Below are positions 27,043 to 43,160 of a stretch of 64,000 bases of DNA, in pieces. Each line of letters begins with the position of its first letter. Position 1 is the first letter of the stretch. This stretch comes from an uncultured Thermodesulfatator sp. GTDB lineage: Bacteria; Desulfobacterota; Dissulfuribacteria; Dissulfuribacterales; QOAL01. The stretch is taken from NCBI GenBank assembly GCA_964581255.1, contig CAZOMT010000010.1, positions 176,156 to 240,155 on the forward strand. The letters run 5' to 3'. Both the position numbers and the translations under genes were made by a program. The notes beneath the pieces were generated by a model. It saw nothing but the letters and a program-made list of their open reading frames with translations, made no database searches and was not told where the DNA came from.

Positions 27043-27600
27043 ATGGAAAATGAATCGCGATTCATAAACGGGGTAAAGGGTCTGATCTTCACCATCGACC
27101 ACGTTAGCGAATTGATGGGGAAGGCGGTCTCCTGGTGTTCCTTGCTATTGGTAATCCTGGTCACATTGAATGTGATACTTCGCTACGCCTTCAATATCAG
27201 TTTTGTATTTGCCGAAGAGATGCAGTGGCACCTTTATGCCCTCATATTCCTTTTGGGCGCAGGATACACATTGAGATACAACGGCCACGTAAGAGTTGAT
27301 GTCTTTTATCAACGCCTTGGCAAAAGGGCACGGGCATTCATAAATGTAATGGGTTGCCTCCTATTCCTCTTTCCAGGTTGCTTTCTTGTGATAAAGACCT
27401 CCATTCCGTTTGTGGAATCTTCCTGGGCCATGCAAGAGGGCTCAGCCGACCCTGGTGGCCTGCCTTGCAGATACCTGCTGAAAGCTGTCATCCCCCTTGC
27501 CTTTGCCCTCCTTTCCATACAAGGCCTGTCCATGTTTCTGAAAAGCCTTTTTACATTGTTTGGAAGGCCTATCCCTGACCGGAAGAAAGGGGGCATCTAA
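27043..27600 (+). CDS. dctQ: TRAP transporter small permease (DctQ family)
   Basis: 185-aa four-TM protein. Its stop overlaps the start of the large-permease gene. Confidence 0.8.
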   Translation: MENESRFINGVKGLIFTIDHVSELMGKAVSWCSLLLVILVTLNVILRYAFNISFVFAEEMQWHLYALIFLLGAGYTLRYNGHVRVDVFYQRLGKRARAFINVMGCLLFLFPGCFLVIKTSIPFVESSWAMQEGSADPGGLPCRYLLKAVIPLAFALLSIQGLSMFLKSLFTLFGRPIPDRKKGGI

Positions 27601-28919
27601 TGGATTATCTAGCCGCATGGATGTTTCTTACCTTAACCATCCTCCTTCTTGCGGGTTTTCCTGTGGCCTTCACCTTACTGGGCACTGCCCTTTGCTTTGG
27701 CCTGATAGGATTTGGCTGGGATTTTTTCAACCTTCTACCCATGAGGATTTGGGGTGTAATTACAAACTTTACCCTTGTAGCAGTGCCATTGTTCATATTC
27801 ATGGGGGTCATGTTGGAACGTTCCGGCATAGCAGGCGACCTGCTGAAAAGCATGGGGATGGCTTTTGGTAGGATAAGAGGCGGGCTTGCAGTATCTGTTG
27901 TAGTGGTGGGAGCCCTTCTTGGTGCCTCCACAGGTATAGTTGGTGCTACTGTTGTCACTATGGGCCTGCTTGCTCTGCCCACCATGATAGAATATGGCTA
28001 CAGAAAGGAACTTGCCACTGGAACCATAGCATCATCAGGAACTCTGGGGCAAATAATCCCACCGAGTATCGTTCTGGTGCTCTTGGGGGACATAATAGGG
28101 GTTTCAGTGGGGGATCTCTTTATAGGGGCTGTTATACCCGGCCTCATATTGGTAATTCTATATGTTATCTATATCCTTGTGACTTCCTGTTTGCATCCCG
28201 ACTGGGCTCCACCAATCAAGGATGACACATTCAAGGAAGAAGGACGGTCTTTTGCACTATATCTCTTGAAGTCATTGATTCCGCCGCTGTCACTGATGGT
28301 CGCTGTCCTTGGTTCCATCTTTGCAGGTATTGCCTCGCCCACAGAAGCTGCAGGCGTAGGAGCGACTGGGGCTACTCTTCTTTGTATCTTGAACAAACGC
28401 TTCAACATGGATGTACTCAGGACTGTCATGGAGACTACGGTTCAGCTCACAAGCATGGTCTTCATCATATTGGTAGGCGCAACGGCATTTGGGCTGGTCT
28501 TCAGAGGGCTCGGAGGTGATATTGTCATAAGGCAGTTTGTCACCCACATCCCTTTTGGGAAATGGGGGGTGCTGGCCACTGTAATGGCTGTTATCTTCAT
28601 AGCAGGTTTTTTTCTGGACTTCATTGAAATCACCTTCATTCACATACCAGTGCTTGCTCCCCTTATGAAGACAATGGGATTTGACCCTGTATGGTTTGCA
28701 ATTCTTTTTGCGGTAAATCTGCAAACCTCTTTTCTCACGCCACCCTTTGGTTTCTCGCTATTCTATCTTAAAGGTGTCGCGCCGCCAGAGGTATCCACTG
28801 TCCAAATCTATAAGGGGATTATACCCTTTGTGGCCATTCAGCTGATTGGACTGTTTATAGTGGTGCTTTTTCCTGAAACAGCAACTTGGCTGCCACGGCT
28901 CATGAACTCCCTGAGATAG
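27600..28919 (+). CDS. dctM: TRAP transporter large permease (DctM family)
   Basis: 439-aa polytopic protein with DctM-like blocks (AVPLFIFMG, GGLAVSVVV, TLGQIIPPS, FGFSLFYLKG). Confidence 0.9.
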   Translation: MDYLAAWMFLTLTILLLAGFPVAFTLLGTALCFGLIGFGWDFFNLLPMRIWGVITNFTLVAVPLFIFMGVMLERSGIAGDLLKSMGMAFGRIRGGLAVSVVVVGALLGASTGIVGATVVTMGLLALPTMIEYGYRKELATGTIASSGTLGQIIPPSIVLVLLGDIIGVSVGDLFIGAVIPGLILVILYVIYILVTSCLHPDWAPPIKDDTFKEEGRSFALYLLKSLIPPLSLMVAVLGSIFAGIASPTEAAGVGATGATLLCILNKRFNMDVLRTVMETTVQLTSMVFIILVGATAFGLVFRGLGGDIVIRQFVTHIPFGKWGVLATVMAVIFIAGFFLDFIEITFIHIPVLAPLMKTMGFDPVWFAILFAVNLQTSFLTPPFGFSLFYLKGVAPPEVSTVQIYKGIIPFVAIQLIGLFIVVLFPETATWLPRLMNSLR

Positions 28920-29335: not shown

Positions 29336-30193
29336 CTACCTTTCCTTGTTGTTTTCCAATTTTTCATCTGTTATCACATTTCTGTTCCTTTTTGTGGCAT
29401 CTACCTCAAGCTGTGGCACCTGGCTGTAATGGCCGTGTCTCAGGGAGGCACGCACTTTCTGGAGCAGCCTGCGCCGTGAAACACGAGGAGAACGCCTTAA
29501 GTGTTTATTGAAGTAGTAGGTAAATGCCCCGTGAAATCGGCCATTTATATAGGCATCTGCAGATGTCTGATCTGCCCTGCAACCTGCCCATAAAATGTGG
29601 TGTTTCCTTTTCCTCCTCTTGGCACCTTCTATGAATCCTCTATATTCCAACTCATCCTCCTCGCCTGAAAAGCGCAATAGCAGATCGGTGGGAGGTGGGA
29701 GATAGCGGCTGATAATTTTAGGCTCTTCATCTTCGACAGGAGGTTCAAGTCCTATATTTCTGAGCCCGGTTCCTGAATGACAAGAATCCAGGACTACTTC
29801 GAGCAAAGCACCTGCTGGCACATTTTTGAGTATGCTATTTAGTTCGTCGTCTGTGATATAGGTGCCGCTCCAGTCCATGTCATAGGGACAGATGAGCTCA
29901 TCCAGGTGGTCCACCAGTTCATCACCATCCCTGTCCCTGATCTGGGACCCATGGCCTGAAAAGTGGAAAAAGAGGAAATCCCCTGGTTTGGCATCGTCCA
30001 CCAACCATCTAAGACGCGCCAAGATATTGTCTTTGGTTGCCCTACTGTCAGTAAGGACCCTGATCTCCTTTGTCTTGAACCCAAATAGGCTTCTGAGGGA
30101 AAAGTGCATGTCCAATACATCGTTGATACATCCTCTCAAATCGTTGACCTTTTCGTAATCGTTTATCCCTACGAGCAATGCCTTCCTACCCAT
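29336..30193 (-). CDS. Orthocaspase / caspase-fold (C14) cysteine peptidase with p20- and p10-like regions
   Basis: ALLVGINDY, catalytic His in FFHFSGHG, catalytic Cys in VLDSCHSG, and a p10-like ILWAGCRADQTSADA...GAFTYYF. AAGGAG RBS. Confidence 0.85.
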   Translation of the reverse strand: MGRKALLVGINDYEKVNDLRGCINDVLDMHFSLRSLFGFKTKEIRVLTDSRATKDNILARLRWLVDDAKPGDFLFFHFSGHGSQIRDRDGDELVDHLDELICPYDMDWSGTYITDDELNSILKNVPAGALLEVVLDSCHSGTGLRNIGLEPPVEDEEPKIISRYLPPPTDLLLRFSGEEDELEYRGFIEGAKRRKRKHHILWAGCRADQTSADAYINGRFHGAFTYYFNKHLRRSPRVSRRRLLQKVRASLRHGHYSQVPQLEVDATKRNRNVITDEKLENNKER

Positions 30194-30230: not shown

Positions 30231-30713
30231 TCACTCTTTGGACATGTCTGGCAGTTGCCCTGCCTTTCGTTCGTATATGAAGGCAGGAGTTACGAATATC
30301 CAGCGTTGCGGTTCGCCTTCCTTTTTCGTTTGGATTAGCCAGGCCTCACGGCCTGGTGAACCGTCATACACGAATACCGGTTCTTGAAGGGTCTCTCCTT
30401 CCTCTATGGGGACTGTCGAAACTACCCGTTCAAGTGCCTCCTTACCTGACAAGCCGGTGACCATTGACGCCCCGTTTAGGGCGCCAATGGCTGCAACTTC
30501 ACCGGTGCCGGTAATTCTGGCAAACCCCTTCAGCTGACCACTTGGTTTTATGGGCACCAGCCAATAGCCAGGGTTGCCTTGCAGGTCCCTCACAAGTACC
30601 GGCTCTCCAATGACGACACTGTTCCACTGGGAAAATTCCAGTTCACCACTCATGCTTAGCATTAAAGCTGCATTAAGCGCCTTCTTCTTTGCCTCTTCCG
30701 CAGAAATGAACAT
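30231..30713 (-). CDS. 160-aa hypothetical protein with two PepSY/prodomain-like repeats, paralogous by eye to the N-terminal region of the upstream peptidase
   Basis: ISAEEAKKKAL...EPVLVRDLQGNPGYWLVPIKPSGQLKGFARI and LSGKEALERV...EPVFVYDGSPGREAWLIQ. Likely ATG at 30713. Lies 17 nt after the upstream stop. Confidence 0.55.
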   Translation of the reverse strand: MFISAEEAKKKALNAALMLSMSGELEFSQWNSVVIGEPVLVRDLQGNPGYWLVPIKPSGQLKGFARITGTGEVAAIGALNGASMVTGLSGKEALERVVSTVPIEEGETLQEPVFVYDGSPGREAWLIQTKKEGEPQRWIFVTPAFIYERKAGQLPDMSKE

Positions 30714-30730
30714 CAATGCATTCCTTTAGC

Positions 30731-31978
30731 TCAATGACACGTTTGAGTACGATGTCTTACATAGATAAAGTTGGTATGGGTTACAGCATTCCAATTTTCC
30801 CAATATACCCGTCCACCCTTGCATGGATCCGGGTTCCAAGGCCAAGGGTCATAGATCTTGAGCCATCGCTGGAGAGGCTGCCATATCAAGTGAAAATTCT
30901 GCCGCTTCCACCCGGCACAAGCCCTGGCATGGCCTGGGATACCTGATTTTAAGGGTCTGTTTGCATTTATTTCTGCCTGGGCTTCAACCCAGTTGGCGCT
31001 TGTATCGAGCGTGGCATCCAGACAGCCCTTTGAAAGGCTCTCATATCCTGTGACCTGTCCATTGAGGGTTGTACCGCCAGGGCCGGTACCCATAGCGTAG
31101 GCAATCTGATCCTGACTGAAGTAATACCTGTAAAAGTCAAGGATCATCTGGCCTGTTGCCACTGCGCAATAGACACTTGTCTTTTGCCCCCTGAGTTCGA
31201 AACAATCGTGGGGCGTACACCTTGGCGCATACCGCAACACCCTCCAAGAGTAAAAGGGTATGGGTATTGGGGTGGGACTCAAGGGATGGACCGGCTGAAT
31301 AGATGCAGCTATGGATGCCTTCAGATCCTTCAGTTCCTTAGAGCTAAAACCTCGGTCAAAGGCCCTTGGTATCCTGTCTTTCATGATCTCCAGTTCCTTG
31401 TCGGAAAGGTCCCAGAGGTATTCCCTCTTGGCAGCCTCAGGATATGCATATTCATGGTAAAAGGAATAGACGCCCGAGCCTTCTTCTTCGTGGTCGCTGA
31501 AGATCTCCACTTCAGATCCGTTTGAGACGTCGAATATGGTTGCCTGTTCAGTGCCGTCAGGCTCGCTGAAAAACACCCTTATCCCTATCCGGGGATAGCA
31601 ATAGCAAACCACATCCACATCCTTGATCTCTGCCTTGGGATATTTTTCCTTTACCTTTTTTTCAGCTTGTTTGGCCGCCTTGTCTGGATCCCATGACCTT
31701 TTTCCAAATTCTACAGTGACTATGGGGCTTCCCAATGCCCGGCTGGCACTCGCCTTGACTGTTCCAGACTCCTTTTTGCCATTGATCACCTTGAACTCGT
31801 AGAACAGTATCTCGCCATTCAGGTCATTGATCTCAAGAGGCTCTGGATCTACTTCACAGGCACCCCAAGGTTCCAGATCCCGTACCTGCCCTGCCCATTC
31901 TTTCCGTATTGTCATGAGCGCGTGTTCGTATGCACGTCCCTTGTCAACTGGACTCAATGGTTCCTTGTAAACCTTCAT
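30731..31978 (-). CDS. Papain-fold (C39-like/C1-like clan CA) cysteine peptidase with a ~250-aa N-terminal prodomain-like region
   Basis: Q-x5-C signature GQKTSVYCAVATGQMIL, later GIPGHARACAGW (His) and IYDPWPWNP (Asp/Asn). GGAGGAG RBS. Confidence 0.65.
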   Translation of the reverse strand: MKVYKEPLSPVDKGRAYEHALMTIRKEWAGQVRDLEPWGACEVDPEPLEINDLNGEILFYEFKVINGKKESGTVKASASRALGSPIVTVEFGKRSWDPDKAAKQAEKKVKEKYPKAEIKDVDVVCYCYPRIGIRVFFSEPDGTEQATIFDVSNGSEVEIFSDHEEEGSGVYSFYHEYAYPEAAKREYLWDLSDKELEIMKDRIPRAFDRGFSSKELKDLKASIAASIQPVHPLSPTPIPIPFYSWRVLRYAPRCTPHDCFELRGQKTSVYCAVATGQMILDFYRYYFSQDQIAYAMGTGPGGTTLNGQVTGYESLSKGCLDATLDTSANWVEAQAEINANRPLKSGIPGHARACAGWKRQNFHLIWQPLQRWLKIYDPWPWNPDPCKGGRVYWENWNAVTHTNFIYVRHRTQTCH

Positions 31979-32027
31979 GTTTTTCTCCTCCTTCTTTTTT
32001 GTCTTACCCTTGGTTAACTTGATATCT

Positions 32028-32071
32028 GGCCCTGCCTGCTAGGCCCTCTCTATCCTTGCACAGGCAGGGCC
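32028..32071 (-). promoter_or_regulatory. GC-rich 11-bp perfect hairpin in the predicted 5' leader of the protease operon
   Basis: GGCCCTGCCTG-22 nt-CAGGCAGGGCC, between the sigma-54-type promoter (about 32097-32110) and the RBS/ATG at 31978. Confidence 0.5.
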
Positions 32072-32095
32072 GCGCCTACCCTTCGATGGTGTTAT

Positions 32096-32112
32096 TGCCA
32101 CTTTTGTGCCTT
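32096..32112 (-). promoter_or_regulatory. Sigma-54 (-24/-12)-type promoter facing the protease operon
   Basis: Minus strand reads AAGGCACAAAAGTGGCAAT. GG (32110/32109) and GC (32098/32097) are separated by exactly 10 nt, fitting TGGCAC-N5-TTGC at 11 of the 15 consensus-aligned positions; the 10 specified consensus bases match at the core residues GGCAC and T-GC. Lies about 120 nt upstream of the ATG at 31978. A sigma-54 activator gene is adjacent. Confidence 0.55.
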
Positions 32113-32247
32113 ATGGCCGAATTCAAAAAATTTTTTTAAAATCGTTGATTAATTAATGGTTTTTATTGAAAAAACCGATTAAACAAATTCTTTGACCCAC
32201 ATTGTTTCTCGGATTATTTCGTAAACCTTATAGACATTTTTGGTTTT

Positions 32248-32270
32248 ATATGTAAACATTCTTTACATAT
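32248..32270. promoter_or_regulatory. Perfect 9-5-9 palindrome: candidate activator-binding site (UAS/operator)
   Basis: ATATGTAAA-cattc-TTTACATAT. Lies about 150 bp upstream of the -12 element and 25 bp upstream of the activator's own ATG. A second AT-rich palindrome, TTAATGGTTTTTATTGAAAAAACCGATTAA (32155-32182), and an IHF-like AATCAACGATTTT (minus strand, about 32141-32153) lie in between. Confidence 0.4.
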
Positions 32271-32294
32271 TCATGAGAATGGAGAATAACCCTT

Positions 32295-33851
32295 ATGAAA
32301 TCAACGGATAATATCTCCCTGTCTAAAGACGACTTTTCCCTCTTTTATGAGATCTCCACCTCTATCCAGGAAATTTGCGATCTCGATGAAATGCTTCACT
32401 CTATCCTTTCAAAGATCAAAAAGGCCTTCCATATAGAAGGGGTGTCTGTCGTGCTCCATGATCCAGAGAACAAGGAGTTTTATTTTTTGAGGGCTGCTGA
32501 ATCGGAGATGGGTCTTGATCCGCTTCGTATGCATGAGATGAGATTCCCAGATGACGTAGGGGTCGCTGGATGGGTTATGAGGGAGGGCCAAACTGTGGTT
32601 ATCCAAAACGTGGCCAGGGACGAAAGGTTTTTCAGCGGTCTCGATAACAAAAAGGGCTTTGTGACAAGATCTATGATATGCGTACCCCTCAAGACCAGGA
32701 GAGGTTTTACAGGCGTTTTATACGCACTCAACAAGATCCAGGGTAGTTTCTCTGAAAAGGATGCCAAGATCCTGGAGATCCTTTCCACTCCTATTGCAAT
32801 CTCCATTGAAAACGCTCGTCTTTACGGAGAACTAAAACGGCATGCAGACATCCTTGAAAGGCAAAACCGCCATCTGTGCAGCAAGGCTCAGGAAAGATTC
32901 AATAAAGAGGGGATTATTGGCAGGAGCGGTCCCATGCGGCAGCTCTTTTCATTGATCGACAAGGTGATAGACACCCCCACCACAGTGTTGATACAGGGAG
33001 AAACAGGTACTGGCAAGGAATTGGTCGCAAGGGTCATTCACTTCAGTGGCCCTTTGAAGGACAGGCCATTTGTTGCAGAAAATTGTGGCGCTCTTCCTGA
33101 AAATCTCCTGGAAAGTGAATTATTCGGCCATGTCAAAGGTGCCTTTACCGGTGCAACATCCGACAAGAAGGGACTCTTTGAGATAGCAGACGGCGGCACT
33201 ATATTTCTTGATGAAATAGGAGAGATGAGTCCGGCTATGCAGGTGAAGCTCCTTAGAGTGCTCCAGGAAGGCCAGATCCGGCCAGTTGGCTCCAACCGTT
33301 TCCGCAAAGTCAACGTGCGAGTCATCGCGTGTACCAATAGGGATCTGGAGCATGAAGTAAGGAGGGGAAGATTCAGGCAAGACCTGTTGTACAGAATAAA
33401 TGTATTCCCAATAACCGTTCCTGCACTCAGGGAAAGAAGGGACGATATACCCCTTCTTGTGGACCACTTCTTGAAAAAGGCAGCGGAAAAATTACACAGG
33501 CCTGCACCTACTGTCTCTCCTCTGGCCATGGATTTGCTTCTTAATTTCGACTGGCCTGGAAATATCAGGCAACTCGAAAATGAGATGGAGAGGGCATTGA
33601 TCCTTGCAGGTAGTTCATTGGAAATCGGGCCTGAACATTTGTCATTGAGATTGCAGCAGGATCTAGGATTCGACGGCCCCAAAGGCAACGAGGGGGCTTC
33701 ATTGAAAGAGGTGGTTCAAAGATTGGAGGCGGGAATGATCGAAAGGGCCCTATCCAAAACTGGTGGAAACAGGTCAAAGGCAGCTCGTCTCCTTGGGCTT
33801 ACCCGCCAAGGCTTGATAAACAAGATCAACCGCTACGATTTGAAGATCTGA
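32295..33851 (+). CDS. Sigma-54-dependent transcriptional activator (GAF - AAA+ - Fis-type HTH)
   Basis: N-terminal GAF-like domain. Walker A GETGTGKE, ESELFGHVKGAFTGA (GAFTGA loop), and the C-terminal HTH GGNRSKAARLLGLTRQGLINKI. Confidence 0.9.
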   Translation: MKSTDNISLSKDDFSLFYEISTSIQEICDLDEMLHSILSKIKKAFHIEGVSVVLHDPENKEFYFLRAAESEMGLDPLRMHEMRFPDDVGVAGWVMREGQTVVIQNVARDERFFSGLDNKKGFVTRSMICVPLKTRRGFTGVLYALNKIQGSFSEKDAKILEILSTPIAISIENARLYGELKRHADILERQNRHLCSKAQERFNKEGIIGRSGPMRQLFSLIDKVIDTPTTVLIQGETGTGKELVARVIHFSGPLKDRPFVAENCGALPENLLESELFGHVKGAFTGATSDKKGLFEIADGGTIFLDEIGEMSPAMQVKLLRVLQEGQIRPVGSNRFRKVNVRVIACTNRDLEHEVRRGRFRQDLLYRINVFPITVPALRERRDDIPLLVDHFLKKAAEKLHRPAPTVSPLAMDLLLNFDWPGNIRQLENEMERALILAGSSLEIGPEHLSLRLQQDLGFDGPKGNEGASLKEVVQRLEAGMIERALSKTGGNRSKAARLLGLTRQGLINKINRYDLKI

Positions 33852-33858
33852 AGAAAAA

Positions 33859-36120
33859 ATGCAAGGGACGCACCCAAGGAGCTTGCACAAATTTTATAAA
33901 TGGCGGCTAAACATCAAAAGTGTCGCGATCTTCTCGTTACTGGTGATATCTTCTGGATTTCTTTGTGCCCTCTATCCGCCTTTGTCCCAAAAGGCCCTGG
34001 AGGCGGATCTTGCCACGTGGTTCAGGCTCAGGCAATTCAAGCCCAGCCCTGAAGATGTGGTCATAGTAAACCTTGACAGTGAGTCCGGGGCCAGGCTTGG
34101 CCTGCCACCAAGTCCTGAAAAATGGCCACGCACCATCTACGCCAAGCTAGTTGAACGCCTTGCAGACCTTGGCGCCCTATCAATCGTGCTTGACGTCCAT
34201 TTTTCAGATGTAAAAAATCTTGAGGAAGACCTGGTCTTTGCAAAGGCAATCAAACAGGCCGCCAGTGTCGTGCTCTTTGAATATACCAACAGAAGGCTTA
34301 TCAAGCTTGATGCCGTAAGGGAAAACGGCCTTCCAAAAATCGCAATAGAAACCGCCATCCCGCCACTGCCTGTTCTTGCTTCTGCTGCTGTGGCTACCGC
34401 TCCATTTCCCTTGCCAAAGGTACCTGTCCGTCTAAACCGTTTTTGGACCTTCAAGTCTAGCCTTGGAGACGTGCCTAGCCTGCCAGTTGTGGCCCTATAT
34501 CTCTATGTGTTCAATAAGGAAAAAAGGCTCAAGGATAAGCTTTCTGAATTGTTTCCTGACCTTTTCCAAGAATTTGAAGATATGAGAAACGTGAAGCTGT
34601 TGGCACTGAGATTGAGACAGTATCTTCTTCTCAATAAAGGAGCTGCGGAAAGGGCTTTTAATGAGTTGGATCATGATGTGGCCCTCAAGATGGAAGAAAA
34701 AAGGCTCTTAAAGGTATTGATCTATACGGCAGCAGGTCCTGAAAGCCCCTTTTTGAACTTTTACGGCCCTCCTGGGACCATCCTTACCATACCATGCAGC
34801 ACGGTGTTGGCAGAGGAGTCAAGTGAGGAGCTCCTCATTAACAATATCAAGGGTCGTGTAGTCTTTGTGGGAGCTGCAACCAAGAATCCTTCGGAGCAAA
34901 AGGATGGCTTCTACACGGTCTACACTCGGCCTGACGGCCTCGATCTCAGCGGGGTAGAGATCGCTGCAACTGCCTTTGCCAATCTCCTGAACCAAGAATC
35001 TGTAAGGCCTGCGACAGCCTGGATGCGTGCCTTAATAATCGTGGCTTGGGGGCTATTTGTCACAATGGTCGCCTTTTTCCTGCCTCCAGTATTTTCTGCC
35101 CTTACATTCACAATGGGCGCTGCCACTTATGTGTATGGTGGCCTTGTCGCCTTTACAACAAAGACCATATGCCTACCTTTTTGGCTGCCTGTGATATTTC
35201 CATGTGTTCCAGCATATGGGTTCATGGTTTTATGGCAATACAGCAGGGTCAGAACAGAAAGAAAAAACATCAGCAAGGCCTTTAGCCACTATTTGCCATC
35301 AAAGGTGGTGGATACCCTTGCCAGGGACCGTACATTCATTAATAGGCCGCCTCAGTTACTCTATGGCGTCTGTTTAATGACAGATGCAGAACAATACACG
35401 TCCCTTTCAGAGCATATGGAACCTGGGGAATTGGCAAGGTTCATGAATCAATATTACGAGCATATCTTCGAGCCTGTAAAAAAGAATGGGGGGGTAATTT
35501 CAGACGTGTTGGGAGACTCCATGCTGGCAATCTGGACAGGAGCTGAACCAAACGTCAGGCTAAATGCATCTGCAATAAAGGCTGCGCTCGAGATCATGGA
35601 AAAGGTTCGAGACTTTAACAAAAAAAACAATCAGTCCATACAGCTCCCCACCCGTATAGGCCTCCATTCAGGACACCTTGCCCTTGGGCATCTCGGCACA
35701 CCTGACCATTTTGAATTTACTCCAATAGGCGATATCGTAAACACGGCCTCCCGCATAGAAGGCCTCAACAAATACTTGGGCACCAGGATCTTATCTTCTG
35801 GGGATCTGTTATCTCTGAATAATGGATTCCTCGTAAGAGAACTAGGCAGTTTCCTTTTAGCTGGCAAATCCAAACCAATTGTGATATACGAAATCTTAAG
35901 CACAATTGAAGAATCGACACCGTTTCAACGCCAACTGTGCAACTCTTTTGGCCAGGCATTGAGAAAATTCAGGGAGAGGAATTGGGATGAGGCTGCTAGG
36001 GGCTTTATGGAATGCGGAATAGATGGACCAGCCCGCTTCTATCTAAAATTGTGCAACGCCTACCTGAAAAATCCGCCCTTGGAAGACTGGACAGCTACTA
36101 TCAGACTGGATAGAAAATAG
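33859..36120 (+). CDS. CHASE2 sensor domain - class III adenylate/guanylate cyclase
   Basis: N-terminal TM, then a ~330-aa extracytoplasmic region (VIVNLDSES...VLDVHF, typical of the start of CHASE2) and three TM helices. Cyclase core is CLMTDAEQYTSLSE...GDSMLAIW...IGLHSGHLALG...IGDIVNTASRIEG. Starts 8 nt after the activator gene. Confidence 0.85.
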   Translation: MQGTHPRSLHKFYKWRLNIKSVAIFSLLVISSGFLCALYPPLSQKALEADLATWFRLRQFKPSPEDVVIVNLDSESGARLGLPPSPEKWPRTIYAKLVERLADLGALSIVLDVHFSDVKNLEEDLVFAKAIKQAASVVLFEYTNRRLIKLDAVRENGLPKIAIETAIPPLPVLASAAVATAPFPLPKVPVRLNRFWTFKSSLGDVPSLPVVALYLYVFNKEKRLKDKLSELFPDLFQEFEDMRNVKLLALRLRQYLLLNKGAAERAFNELDHDVALKMEEKRLLKVLIYTAAGPESPFLNFYGPPGTILTIPCSTVLAEESSEELLINNIKGRVVFVGAATKNPSEQKDGFYTVYTRPDGLDLSGVEIAATAFANLLNQESVRPATAWMRALIIVAWGLFVTMVAFFLPPVFSALTFTMGAATYVYGGLVAFTTKTICLPFWLPVIFPCVPAYGFMVLWQYSRVRTERKNISKAFSHYLPSKVVDTLARDRTFINRPPQLLYGVCLMTDAEQYTSLSEHMEPGELARFMNQYYEHIFEPVKKNGGVISDVLGDSMLAIWTGAEPNVRLNASAIKAALEIMEKVRDFNKKNNQSIQLPTRIGLHSGHLALGHLGTPDHFEFTPIGDIVNTASRIEGLNKYLGTRILSSGDLLSLNNGFLVRELGSFLLAGKSKPIVIYEILSTIEESTPFQRQLCNSFGQALRKFRERNWDEAARGFMECGIDGPARFYLKLCNAYLKNPPLEDWTATIRLDRK

Positions 36121-39565: not shown

Positions 39566-39802
39566 ATGAGCGAAAAAAGACACAACAAGGCGTATTTCAA
39601 GGTATTGTACGACAAGGAGGGGGAAGTGATAGGGGTAGAGCCCCCAAAAGGAAAAGAGGTGAGAATACTAAACGAATGTGATCTATACAGAGAGCCCCTA
39701 AAAGACATAAATGGCATCAAGGCCACACTTATAATCTCGCGACCGGGAAACACCCCATGCTGTGTCAAGGCTGGCAGATGGCTTTGGTGCTGGTGCCTGT
39801 AA
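39566..39802 (+). CDS. 78-aa hypothetical protein with a C-terminal Cys/Trp-rich tail
   Basis: Strong RBS (AAGGAGGAG, 8 nt before the ATG). Lies 34 nt after the barrel gene. Ends ...RPGNTPCCVKAGRWLWCWCL. No signal peptide is visible. Confidence 0.5.
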   Translation: MSEKRHNKAYFKVLYDKEGEVIGVEPPKGKEVRILNECDLYREPLKDINGIKATLIISRPGNTPCCVKAGRWLWCWCL

Positions 39803-39825
39803 TGTACCTGGATATCAACAACGGA

Positions 39826-39849
39826 CCAGGGGCGGCTCAAAGCCCCTGG
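39826..39849 (+). terminator. 8-bp GC hairpin after the small ORF (terminator-like, no U-tract)
   Basis: CCAGGGGC-ggctcaaa-GCCCCTGG. Lies 24 nt after the stop. Confidence 0.3.
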
Positions 39850-40086
39850 ACATCAAGAGCTTGTCTTAAGGCTGCCTCAGACTCGAAGCTGATTTGTTCA
39901 AAACGGCTGATATAACGAGCCATGACAGTTTTTGGAAGATACCCATAAGGCCCAGGAGGAGTCAGGGCTGCCCCTCATGCCTTTGAGCTGCCTGAAAAAT
40001 CCGTATCGACAGGATAACTACGGTTATTCTTTTCTTGGGCCTTGTGCCTGAATTGAAATTACAGATTGCACACTGAAAGAAGATAC

Positions 40087-41664
40087 CTATCTCGTGGGTA
40101 GCTCAGGAGTGGGTTGGGCGTTGTCCATCTGCTCATCCTTTCCCGCGATGCCATGACACTTCTGATAAAAGGGGCAATTTTTGCATTCATGGATCTTTTC
40201 GGCGTAAGTGCCCATCACCCTGCCTTCGCACATTGTCCCTGCTATGGCCCAGCATATGCGTCCAAAATATGGATAGGCTGGGCACCGACGCGTAGGATCC
40301 TTTTCAATGCCGCACTTGATATATTGCCAGCACTGGGTCTTTTTGTCCTCTTCTTCGCTTTGATAGGGGAAGTGGAGGGTAAAGGTGGTTCCTGTGTCCT
40401 CGTCACTCTTGACTTCTATAAAGCCCCTGTGCTCTTCCAGGATCTTTTGCACAATGGCCAGTCCCAGGCCAGTTCCTACCCCAATCTTCTTGGTTGAATA
40501 AAAAGGCTGAAAGATGAGAGCCAGCTTTTCCTTGGGTATGGGCCTTCCAGTATTGTTTATGGAGACGATGACCCAGAGGACCTCGTTTTGCATCTTTGTC
40601 CCTGTAGTTACCGATATGGTGCCTCCTTCGTGGCTCACTGCATCTATTGCATTGGTTATGAGGTTTCCAATGGCCTGTTTTATTTGGTCGTAATCAAAAT
40701 AGACCCTTGGAAGATCTGGCATATAATTTTCAATCAGACGTATCTTTTCTGTTTGGCAAAGATCACAGAAAAATTCCACTGCATCCCTGACAGGCTCATT
40801 TATGTCACCACGTTTGAGTTCAAAGCGAAATTGTTCGGAGGACAATATCATGACATCCTTGAGTATTGCCTCAAGCCTTTCCGCCTCGGCGAGAATGACC
40901 CTTAGATATTCCTTTTCTTTTGTGCCTTCTTTGATGTGTTTATCCAGACGCCTGGCCATGCCTCCGAGTGCCGATAACGGATTTCTTATCTCGTGGGCAA
41001 TGTCGTAGGTGAGCCTGCCCATAGCTGCCAGTTTTTCCGCCTCGATGAGCCTCGACTGCATGCGTTTGAGATATTCTATGGACTCTTCAAGGCGTCTGTT
41101 CAATTCCTCAATCCTTTTCTTGTCTCGCCTGAGCTTTTCTGAAAGAAGACCGAGAGGTATTGCGATAAGATATAAGAAAGCGATCCTGAGAGCCTGGTCT
41201 GTCCAGTGGATGGTGCCCAAGTAGGGTATGATGTTCACCAGATACATTATGCCAGAAATGGTGGCCACAAGGGCACCGAACTTGGGTCCAAAATAAAAGG
41301 TGTGAAGCGCTGTGAGCAGGTAATATCCAAGAAAGAAGCTATTGTTGAGATCCCTGTGGAAACTCACAAGGAAGAACACGAAAACCATGTCAAGGAAGAG
41401 GGAAGCTATATAGGCATATCTTATCTTCTCAGGCCGTTTGAATATGTAGATATATAGGAGACTGCTGTAGATAGAGAAGGCCACAAGGGCCTTGGCAAGA
41501 TCTCCCCTTTCCTTGTTTGAAAGGGGGGCCAGTAGCAACCAGGCGATCCCACCAAGCACTGTGACAATCCTGAGCACGAGAAAACCCAGATCTATGACGC
41601 CAAGGGGTCCACATGCCCTTTTGATGGTCTCTTTCAGGTGTTCGCTCAGGGTCCTCTTTGCCAT
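40087..41664 (-). CDS. Membrane sensor histidine kinase with a C-terminal Cys-rich domain (two 'CW' motifs)
   Basis: About 5 TM helices. H-box YDIAHEIRNPLSAL, N-box LITNAIDA and G-box GTGLGLAIV. Tail is QCWQYIKCG...RRCPAYPYFGRICWAIAGTMCEG...HECKNCPFYQKCHG, with 9 Cys. Confidence 0.85.
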   Translation of the reverse strand: MAKRTLSEHLKETIKRACGPLGVIDLGFLVLRIVTVLGGIAWLLLAPLSNKERGDLAKALVAFSIYSSLLYIYIFKRPEKIRYAYIASLFLDMVFVFFLVSFHRDLNNSFFLGYYLLTALHTFYFGPKFGALVATISGIMYLVNIIPYLGTIHWTDQALRIAFLYLIAIPLGLLSEKLRRDKKRIEELNRRLEESIEYLKRMQSRLIEAEKLAAMGRLTYDIAHEIRNPLSALGGMARRLDKHIKEGTKEKEYLRVILAEAERLEAILKDVMILSSEQFRFELKRGDINEPVRDAVEFFCDLCQTEKIRLIENYMPDLPRVYFDYDQIKQAIGNLITNAIDAVSHEGGTISVTTGTKMQNEVLWVIVSINNTGRPIPKEKLALIFQPFYSTKKIGVGTGLGLAIVQKILEEHRGFIEVKSDEDTGTTFTLHFPYQSEEEDKKTQCWQYIKCGIEKDPTRRCPAYPYFGRICWAIAGTMCEGRVMGTYAEKIHECKNCPFYQKCHGIAGKDEQMDNAQPTPELPTR

Positions 41665-41789
41665 ATATTCGCCTGGAAGCCTTTTGGGCCTCCAGGTCCT
41701 CCTTCAGGTTTCACCAGATGGAGCCCTCTTGCCCCATGACAAAAAGGCCCCAGCTTCTGTATTTGCTTAAAAAGCAGTTAAGGAAAGAA

Positions 41790-42875
41790 TTAGAGCATGG
41801 AATCATAATAGGATTTCTCAGAAATCTCGTTCCAGGCTGCCAACTTCTTCTTGAAGGCCATGAAATCCTCATTCACCTTTTTTGCCAGGGGGTCCTTGGC
41901 GGCAGTTTCCGAAATGGTCTCTGCGGCAAGCCTTTTGAGGCCTTCCATGACCTCATCTGGAAATCGCAATAGCTGAATCTTGTGGGACCTTTTTAACTCG
42001 GCCAAGGCCTTTGCGTTTTCTGTTTCAAATTCCGATAGCATGGTCACGTTGAGTTCAGCCGCTGCAGTTTCCACAGCCGCCTTGATATCGGCTGGTAAGG
42101 CTTCATATGCCTTCTTGTTCATGATGAATTCCAAGGTGCTGCCAGGTTCATGCCATCCTGGATAATAATAGTACTTGGCAACCTTGTAAAAACCCATTCT
42201 TATATCGTGGCATGGGCCGATCCATTCGGTGGCATCGATAACACCCCGTTCAAGAGATGTATAGATCTCCCCTGCAGGCAGAAGCACCACTGCGCCTCCA
42301 GCCTTGGCAAGCACCTTTCCCCCAAGGCCAGGGATCCTCATCTTGAGTCCCTTGAAATCCGCCATGGAATTTATCTTCTTGTTGAACCATCCACCCATCT
42401 GAAAGCCAGTGTTGCCAGCCGGCCGAGGCACCAGATTGAAGGGCTTGTATACCTCTTCCCAGAGCTTAAGACCATTTCCAAAATAGAACCAGGCATTCAT
42501 GCCCTGGGCATCCATCCCAAAGGGGACACAGGTGAACCACTGGGCAGCATTGCATTTGCCAGCCCAGTAGTATGCCGCACTGTGGCCACAGTGCACAGAG
42601 CCAGATGAAACTGCATCAAACACACCAAGGGGAGGAACGAGTTCTCCTCCTGCATAGACCTGAATGGTAAGCCTGCCATTTGTGAGTTCCTCAACCCGTT
42701 TTGCAAAACGTTCCACTCCAGTCTGAAGTATAGGGAAGGCAGGAGGCCATGAGGTCACCATTCTCCATCTTATCTTCTCACTGGATGTGGCTTGTGCAGA
42801 TCCTGCGCCTAAGGCTGACGCTGCAACCGCTGCTCCTGCAATAGCTCCCTTTTTGAGCAAATTTCGCCTGTCCAT
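41790..42875 (-). CDS. dctP: TRAP transporter substrate-binding protein (DctP family) with a twin-arginine-like signal peptide
   Basis: ATG at 42875 (AGGAGG RBS) gives MDRRNLLKKGAIAGAAVAASALGAGSAQA, and the body is DctP-like. The track's upstream start is rejected. Confidence 0.85.
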   Translation of the reverse strand: MDRRNLLKKGAIAGAAVAASALGAGSAQATSSEKIRWRMVTSWPPAFPILQTGVERFAKRVEELTNGRLTIQVYAGGELVPPLGVFDAVSSGSVHCGHSAAYYWAGKCNAAQWFTCVPFGMDAQGMNAWFYFGNGLKLWEEVYKPFNLVPRPAGNTGFQMGGWFNKKINSMADFKGLKMRIPGLGGKVLAKAGGAVVLLPAGEIYTSLERGVIDATEWIGPCHDIRMGFYKVAKYYYYPGWHEPGSTLEFIMNKKAYEALPADIKAAVETAAAELNVTMLSEFETENAKALAELKRSHKIQLLRFPDEVMEGLKRLAAETISETAAKDPLAKKVNEDFMAFKKKLAAWNEISEKSYYDSML

Positions 42876-43160
42876 AAAAAACCTCCTTATCTGTTCTTGT
42901 GTGAAAAAAGTATTTCTTACCTGTCCCCTTATCCTGTTTTTGAAGAAATCGAGCAAATTTCATGGCACAGGTTATGGACCTTATACGTCTGTCGTATGGG
43001 GAACGCAATACGAAATGGTTCAAAACCGCAAATCAATGCCACCTGTGCCTGTTTTTTTACTTTTCTCTTTTTTTAAGTTGCGCGCTCCTTTTTTTCACCT
43101 AAAATATCTTGAATCTTAGCATTAATACCAAGCCTTAAATTTGATGGCCAAAAACAAGCG

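Follow-up and report, generated by a model that had tools for sequence, protein, structure and literature searches.

A 316-base control region occupies positions 31979-32294 of the stretch analysed here, a 64,000-nucleotide (nt) section of contig CAZOMT010000010.1 from an uncultured Thermodesulfatator sp., referred to below as the window. The region fills the entire intergenic gap between a minus-strand gene for a C39-like peptidase (30731-31978) and a plus-strand gene for a sigma-54 activator (32295-33851). We find it probable that this gap is a sigma-54 control region, in which a -24/-12 promoter, preceded by two activator sites and separated from them by an AT-rich spacer, drives an operon encoding caspase-family and C39-like peptidases. 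The G+C content is 47.6% in the window, 36.7% in the gap and 26.7% in the portion of the gap upstream of the promoter. A first reading of the sequence (the original prediction) had described the gap as a divergent control region beside an enhancer-binding activator, and the adjoining protein does have the GAF-AAA+-HTH architecture of such an activator. It matched PF00158 at 1.4e-70, carries the motifs GAFTGA and GETGTGKE, and is the sole protein of this kind in the window.

In the mechanism that we propose, the promoter would be deliberately far from consensus and hence silent without its activator. The divergently encoded GAF-AAA+-HTH enhancer-binding protein would activate the protease operon by binding two dyads of 17 base pairs (bp), centred at -174 and -143, and by looping over the 107-bp spacer to the promoter, with integration host factor (IHF) possibly assisting at about -71. 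Bound to the same dyads, the activator would throttle its own operon, read from a promoter of the form TAGACA-16 nt-TAAACA. The probable input is a cyclic nucleotide, which the co-transcribed CHASE2 cyclase would produce and the activator would sense through its GAF domain.

Two conserved dyads upstream of a predicted -24/-12 promoter

The gap was aligned with the corresponding gaps of four other lineages, which are given here with the identity of their activator to that of the window: L057 (84%), L002/3/4/6/64 (79%), L055/56/51 (78%) and L052 (68%). Two further loci were left out. The sequence of L053, whose activator is 68% identical, ends 280 nt upstream and has one dyad-like site only, and L054 has a 64% activator paralogue, other neighbours and no dyads. 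The five-gap alignment contains 299 ungapped columns, 71 of them invariant, and only two of its hexamers, TGTAAA and TGTCTA, do not vary at all. The pentamers TTTAC are also invariant and complete the remaining two half-sites, giving the dyads TGTAAA-N5-TTTAC[AG] and TGTCTA-N5-TTTAC[AG].

The first dyad, or upstream activator sequence 1 (UAS1), is the core of a 9-5-9 palindrome that had already been proposed as a binding site of the activator. Its two arms (32248-32256 and 32262-32270) match perfectly, and an equally good inverted repeat turned up in 17 of 1000 sequences obtained by dinucleotide shuffling of the gap. The second dyad, UAS2, is imperfect and had been overlooked; it appears to be the actual second site, in place of the AT-rich palindrome to which the original prediction had assigned that role. 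The centres of UAS1 and UAS2 are 31 bp apart in four lineages and 32 bp apart in L055. Because 31 bp corresponds to about three helical turns, the two sites would lie on the same face of the DNA. Across the lineages, UAS1 is centred between -174 and -187 and UAS2 between -143 and -155, and the leaders measure 99-123 nt. These comparisons define a putative binding motif, TGT[AC][AT]A-N5-TTTACR, with two copies at a distance of 31 bp. The exact dyad motif was confined to these intergenic gaps in the 712 kb of loci that were fetched, and at up to one mismatch it occurred 11 times in the window for 1.25 matches expected.

On the minus strand, positions 32096-32111 read AGGCACaaaagTGGCA, that is AGGCAC-N5-TGGCA, with the exact GG-N10-GC spacing of a sigma-54 promoter; judging from the position of the GC, transcription would start at about 32085. 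The elements GGNAC-N5-TGGC[AT] are kept in all five lineages, while the spacer bases between them are unrelated (AAAAG, GTTCC, AGTTC, ACTTT), and the position of the GG relative to the dyads is fixed. The promoter deviates from consensus by an A for T ahead of the GG and by TGGC for TTGC at -12, and stands two mismatches away from the extended consensus TGGCACG-N4-TTGCW. Both the promoter and the overall geometry that had been foreseen, with a UAS about 150 bp upstream followed by -24/-12 elements, are borne out: the -24/-12 elements are conserved, and the enhancer lies about 145-175 bp away with an AT-rich spacer in between.

The promoter was also scored with a position weight matrix (PWM) trained on predicted RpoN promoters of Geobacter sulfurreducens, 90 from a published set of 110 (PMC2725144, supplementary file 3). 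With 9.15 bits it is the top match within the intergenic gap, but the score is weak: it falls at the bottom of the training range (8.98-18.45 bits, median 14.1) and ranks 51st in the window. The window-wide scans with consensus and PWM cannot single out the site and were discarded as positive evidence.

The second-best PWM match in the gap, GCGGCCCTGCCTGTGCA, also has the correct GG-N10-GC spacing. Transcription could start from this weaker site, alone or in tandem with the first; the leader hairpin described below would then not be transcribed, and its inverted repeat would be a feature of the DNA. Its score of 7.47 bits, however, is below the training minimum of 8.98, and the orthologs do not have it, a second GG-N10-GC being listed for the window only, save for an unrelated match in L052. 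This possibility appears scarcely credible to us, and we retain the 9.15-bit site as the promoter of the protease operon.

The same dyad pair is found at cydAB operons

When a metagenome collection was scanned for the dyad pair (TGTAAA-N5-TTTAC, 15-17 nt, TGTCTA-N5-TTTAC), 12 loci were obtained. One belongs again to the L002 lineage and two (L060 and L061) are of a repeat-array type; the other nine are of a cydAB type (L059, L062, L063, L065, L066, L068, L069, L058 and L067; for example L065:5857-6016). At the cyd loci, a seven-transmembrane histidine kinase and a receiver-domain sigma-54 activator are read in one direction, the dyad pair lying just a few bases away from the start codon of the kinase gene. 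Downstream of the dyads comes a GG-N10-GC, 122 or 155 nt from the first of them, and then the cytochrome bd oxidase genes cydAB; the matching distance in the window is 157 nt. These GG-N10-GC sites, TTGGCACAGTTCCCGCA or TTGGCA[CT]GAAAGCCGCT, have a TTGGCA -24 element and scored 9.5-10.8 bits.

In their AAA+ and HTH portions, the cyd-locus activator and the window activator are only 46% identical. The recognition helix of the former, TRQGLINKI, is that of the activators of the window, L002 and L055; the helix reads TRQGLLNKI in L052 and L053 and TRQGMFNKI in the dyad-less 64% paralogue of L054. Because the dyad pair also fronts the cydAB sigma-54 promoters, beside an activator with the same recognition helix, it behaves, as far as sequence can tell, like an enhancer that serves DNA-binding domains of this type at the sigma-54 promoters of two unrelated regulons. 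The enhancer and the DNA-binding helix appear to have been reused under another sensor, the kinase and receiver domain, for cytochrome bd oxidase, and would provide an example of the reuse of a regulatory module. The cyd loci themselves look like an undescribed sigma-54 two-component control of this oxidase.

The two repeat-array loci were rejected as sigma-54 loci. At L060:1840-2001 a tandem, iteron-like array of the 30-nt unit CTGTAAACGAGGTTTACAATCGAGGTCACGAAG carries the TGTAAA-N5-TTTACA dyad without a sigma-54 context. The repeat sequence of L061 is near-identical to that of L060 and has no GG-N10-GC, and the locus was taken to be of the same kind. As a separate observation, the 64%-identical GAF activator paralogue at L054:7470-8000 is transcribed divergently from another operon (DUF6345, CarboxypepD_reg), with a TGGCAC-N5-TTGTG-like site.

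An AT-rich spacer with a candidate bending site

The enhancer and the promoter are separated by 107 bp with a G+C content of 25%, possibly a bendable spacer with an IHF site. The original prediction had placed an IHF-like site between the palindromes and the promoter. The string, AATCAACGATTTT, is present at -59 and the AT-rich spacer is real, but the site itself is at chance level and specific to the window, since the orthologs do not have it at that position. Twelve bases upstream on the same strand, a conserved AT-rich block at -71/-72 has one mismatch to WATCAANNNNTTR in L002, L055 and L052, two in the window and, as counted by eye, about three in L057. This block, which doubles as the right arm of the AT-rich palindrome, is our candidate for a bending site.

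The extended AT-rich palindrome reported earlier at 32155-32182 does exist, but it is imperfect, its flanks pairing only with one bulged base, and it does not seem to be a second activator site. By eye, only the window and L055 keep the dyad form, with matching changes; in L002, L057 and L052 it is weak or lacking. We consider the palindrome more likely to belong to the bendable spacer than to act as an enhancer of its own.

A candidate sigma-70-like promoter built from the dyads

The dyads also contain, in the direction of the activator gene, a candidate sigma-70-type promoter whose elements are made of their half-sites: TAGACA is the right half of UAS2, and TAAACA is supplied by UAS1. The arrangement TAGACA-16/17-TAAAnn is shared by all five lineages and by the two cyd loci inspected for it, L063 and L065. 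Since the first dyad is only 27 bp from the activator start codon (20-33 bp in the other lineages, 107 bp in L052), transcription of the activator operon would have to start inside the dyads or on their far side. The sigma-70-like promoter, if real, would explain why the asymmetry of UAS2 (TGTCTA, not TGTAAA) is invariant. By analogy with the systems discussed below, the dyad-bound activator may repress its own operon.

Evidence against sigma-54 control and the main alternative

Several observations weigh against the reading of the gap given above, or against parts of it. The comparative base consists of five related lineages of one clade, and most other loci with the C39-like gene and its neighbour, the gene of a 161-amino acid (aa) protein, have neither an activator nor a sigma-54 promoter. 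The bare pattern TGGCAC-N5-TTGCW is not enriched in the window (50 matches at up to two mismatches for 40.4 expected), and 50 window sites, mostly intragenic, outscore the promoter on the PWM. A search for the RpoN box revealed no rpoN in the 64-kb window. The enhancer-promoter distance shifts by +11 to +13 bp among the lineages and by -35 bp in some cyd loci, so that phasing is imperfect. As for the activator operon, a standard sigma-70 scan called no promoter on either strand of the gap, the candidate having 8/12 matches, and the conservation of this candidate is inseparable from that of the dyads. IHF involvement is only weakly supported, an IHF-like site of equal quality to that at -59 occurring in 39% of shuffles of the AT-rich spacer. 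Lastly, the cyclase has an Asp at the substrate-specifying Lys position of adenylate cyclases (ISDVLGD, compared with VTKFIGD in bPAC); its product may be other than cyclic AMP (cAMP).

These points bear in part on an alternative in which the GG-N10-GC is coincidental, the protease operon is read from an unrecognised sigma-70-type promoter, and the dyads are operators for the activator operon only, bound by the activator or by another regulator. The weak promoter match and the abundance of equally good matches inside genes are in its favour, and so is the location of the dyads, 27-75 bp from the activator start codon and overlapping the sigma-70-like promoter that faces the activator. However, coincidence does not account well for a GG, a GC and a position that are kept in five lineages while the intervening bases vary, and the standard scan that failed to call the promoter of the activator operon called no sigma-70 promoter for the protease operon either. 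Furthermore, the dyad pair recurs at the cyd locus upstream of a GG-N10-GC with a better PWM score, and an activator with an intact GAFTGA motif requires a sigma-54 promoter as its target. Taken together, these data make the alternative quite improbable and argue for sigma-54 control of the protease operon by the divergent activator.

The leader hairpin is not conserved

A leader hairpin had been put forward as a second control layer acting after initiation. The stem is found where it had been placed and is not random: its arms (32028-32038 and 32061-32071) are 11 nt long, 100% complementary and G+C-rich, and arms as good were obtained in 3 of 1000 dinucleotide shuffles of the gap. The window leader folds at -31.4 kcal/mol (z = -3.1), and none of 200 shuffles was as stable. 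A small 5'-proximal stem of some kind is also frequent in the orthologous leaders. On this evidence the hairpin could be an attenuator, a switch that binds a protein or an RNA, or a determinant of processing or stability.

The other leaders do not support such a role. Six aligned leaders had no conserved structure (RNAalifold, -0.49 kcal/mol, 5 pairs), and those of the orthologs are not unusually stable (z from -0.3 to -1.9); a conserved leader RNA was rejected on the basis of this alignment and of the folding of each leader. No U-tract follows the stem, where the terminator scan was also negative. Rfam gave no family for the leader at gathering or permissive thresholds, with only a spurious snoRNA match at E = 0.026. 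In addition, the Shine-Dalgarno sequence and the start codon of the C39-like gene stay unpaired in the leader fold. Hence the part of the original prediction that concerns the stem itself holds, whereas post-initiation control by it is unlikely. The hairpin thus seems to be real, yet not a conserved control element, and may at most stabilise the 5' end of the mRNA in the window's organism. Since the alignment shows no insertion at its position, it would have arisen in place within the lineage of the window.

A possible cyclic-nucleotide input

The best match of the activator among family models and solved structures is NifA. Membership in the NifA family was rejected: the score with TIGR01817 is 413.6, below the cut-off of 528.85, and the dyads are TGT-N11-ACA, not N10. 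The best solved relatives of its GAF domain are the GAF-B domain of PDE2A (1.2e-17), then PDE10A and PDE5/6, which are GAF domains that bind cyclic GMP or cAMP. The motif NK-x4-F-x3-DA of this domain differs from the NKFDE signature in its last residue.

The gene that follows that of the activator encodes a CHASE2 sensor fused to a class III cyclase and, judging from the layout of the locus, would be co-transcribed with it. In the cyclase domain (residues ~500-680) both metal-binding Asp and the catalytic Asn and Arg are kept. CHASE2 sensors are encoded beside FecR-domain proteins elsewhere, as in an operon of Burkholderia (PMC5192318), and by this analogy the FecR-TPR protein encoded next is the probable partner of the CHASE2 sensor. 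The CHASE2-bearing cyclases CyaD1, CyaD2 and CyaK of Sinorhizobium act, as would the cyclase here, through a transcription factor that responds to the nucleotide, the cAMP-responsive regulator Clr (PMC5498481). In contrast to the Sinorhizobium case, the presumed reader of the nucleotide here is the GAF domain of a sigma-54 activator and not a CRP-like protein, and the output is a peptidase operon.

These elements could form a self-contained second-messenger relay, in which the FecR-TPR protein and the CHASE2 cyclase sense an envelope or external cue and the resulting cyclic nucleotide acts through the GAF activator on the protease operon. We put this relay forward tentatively, as a possibility with somewhat less than even chances. 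If it is true, the otherwise silent operon could serve as a gated module for proteolysis, cell fate or defence. In the literature, we found no described sigma-54 activator that senses a cyclic nucleotide. If the wiring holds, the locus would allow a direct test of whether a cyclic nucleotide can control transcription by sigma-54, and its activator, two dyads and promoter would provide an inducible handle on the role of prokaryotic caspase/C39 modules.

Comparison with known sigma-54 control regions

The control region itself has a textbook arrangement and would add one more well-supported example, with a defined motif. At promoters of the NifA/nifH type, the UAS is TGT-N10-ACA, IHF takes part and the -12 region is weak. 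The gap resembles these in having a GAF-AAA+-HTH activator, a TGT...ACA dyad well upstream and a promoter that is off-consensus near -12; it differs in the TGT-N11-ACA form of the dyad, in the absence of nif genes and in a GAF domain akin to cyclic-nucleotide binders and not to that of NifA. NtrC at glnAp2/glnL uses two 17-bp 6-5-6 dyads about three helical turns apart, upstream of the sigma-54 promoter, and these also repress a sigma-70 promoter. The half-site sequence and the regulon are different here, and the activator has a GAF domain and no receiver domain. NorR has three GT-N7-AC sites in place of the two 17-bp dyads, and its GAF domain senses nitric oxide through iron, whereas that of the window activator resembles a cyclic-nucleotide binder. 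Like the present activator, NorR is a GAF-domain sigma-54 activator that is divergent from its target, norVW, with multiple enhancer sites (PMC2831303).

A further parallel in layout may be drawn with the orp region of Desulfovibrio vulgaris, where the logic of OrpR (DVU2106) control has been established experimentally (PMC3897727). There too, in a related bacterial group, divergent operons are controlled by a one-component sigma-54 activator with palindromic sites about 130 bp upstream. The IHF sites found there between the enhancer and the -24/-12 promoter have only a candidate counterpart in the gap, and the negative loop, in which the activator's sigma-70 promoter is overlapped by its own binding sites, would have its equivalent in the TAGACA/TAAACA promoter (PMC3897727). 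The differences are that one sigma-54 promoter is seen here and two divergent ones at orp, and that the present region has a GAF sensor, another dyad sequence and peptidase targets that are not orp genes.

The protease operon and its neighbourhood

The coordinates of all features are collected in Table 1.

Table 1. Genes and sequence elements of the control region and the adjoining operons (window coordinates; positions with a sign refer to the predicted transcription start)
Feature	Position	Strand	Remarks
Caspase-family (C14) peptidase	29336-30193	-	Third target gene; Pfam PF00656, 3e-35; His/Cys dyad intact
161-aa protein	30231-30716	-	Second target gene; unknown fold; no family match
415-aa C39-like protein	30731-31978	-	First target gene; Pfam PF13529 weak; N-terminal domain unknown; C-terminal cysteine peptidase domain
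Shine-Dalgarno sequence of C39-like gene, AAGGAGGAG	31985-31993	-	Unpaired in predicted fold; GGAGG core kept in orthologs
Leader stem-loop	32028-32071	-	About +15 to +58 of predicted transcript; lineage-specific
Second sigma-54-like match, GCGGCCCTGCCTGTGCA	32057-32073	-	7.47 bits, second-best PWM match in gap; coincides with hairpin 5' arm
Predicted sigma-54 (-24/-12) promoter, AAGGCACAAAAGTGGCAAT	32094-32112	-	GG 32109-32110, GC 32097-32098
IHF-like site of the original prediction, AATCAACGATTTT	32138-32150	-	1 mismatch to WATCAANNNNTTR; centred -59
Conserved AT-rich block, AAACCATTAATTA	32150-32162	-	IHF-like core wAAC[AC]A-N4-TTR; centred about -71; candidate bending site
AT-rich palindrome, imperfect	32155-32182		7-bp core GGTTTTT/AAAAACC, 32158-32164 and 32170-32176
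UAS2, imperfect dyad TGTCTATAAGGTTTACG (TGTCTA-N5-TTTACG)	32220-32236	-	Centred -143; 31 bp centre-to-centre from UAS1
Candidate sigma-70-type promoter of activator operon	32231-32258	+	-35 TAGACA 32231-32236, 16 nt, -10 TAAACA 32253-32258
UAS1, perfect dyad TGTAAA-N5-TTTACA	32251-32267		Centred -174; extended perfect palindrome 32248-32270
GAF-AAA+-HTH_8 sigma-54 activator	32295-33851	+	GAFTGA and Walker A
CHASE2 sensor fused to class III nucleotide cyclase	33859-36120	+	Domain content; same gene order in all related loci
FecR-TPR protein, 1111 aa	36196-39531	+	C-terminal beta-barrel-like region

The presumed output is an operon of three genes, and the standard sigma-70 and terminator scans were negative both in the gap and after the caspase gene. 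The caspase has the motifs SGHG and DSCHSG, which make up the His/Cys dyad. In an AlphaFold (AF2) model of the 415-aa protein, with a predicted local distance difference test (pLDDT) score of 85.5, only the C-terminal part matches C39 peptidase domains, namely those of ComA, PCAT1 and the AMS/PCAT double-glycine protease (6mpz). The 161-aa protein was modelled with a pLDDT of 92, and a search of solved structures found no match for it or for the N-terminal domain of the C39-like protein. Its N-terminal half is nevertheless homologous to that domain (hhalign probability 88%, E 3e-6), and the two models have helices and strands in the same order. From these alignments and models, the 161-aa protein and the N-terminal domain of its C39-like neighbour are best described as paralogous.

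For the C39-like protein, 786 homologues could be detected. The C39/161-aa core of this caspase-family/C39-like protease operon is widespread: the pair occurs in many bacterial phyla and in some archaeal metagenome-assembled genomes, mostly without a nearby activator gene, and the 161-aa gene always adjoins the C39-like gene across phyla. The full six-gene layout (peptidase operon, gap, activator, CHASE2 cyclase and FecR protein), on the other hand, was recovered only in a single clade, from the window and the four further lineages of the alignment. Among 20 other C39/161-aa loci, the upstream PWM score exceeded 9 bits in two only (L043, 11.4; L023, 9.4) and none had an activator nearby, so that the sigma-54 wiring would be specific to the clade of the window. 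PADLOC reported no known defence system, with generic caspase, cyclase and RtcR-like matches only. In the literature we found no description of this gene set, of CHASE2 with FecR and a caspase, or of an orthocaspase with CHASE2.

Downstream of the FecR-TPR gene, an open reading frame of 77-85 aa without a family match (39566-39802 in the window, plus strand) is also present in every related locus (L002, L052, L053 and L055), and probably belongs to the sensor operon as an additional component. The seven-gene sensor/protease cluster is flanked by TRAP-transporter genes, with dctQM on one side (27043-28919) and a histidine kinase gene and dctP on the other (~39800-42900). The L002 lineage has the same flanking genes. 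Since the cluster has other neighbours in L052, this arrangement suggests that it moves as a unit.

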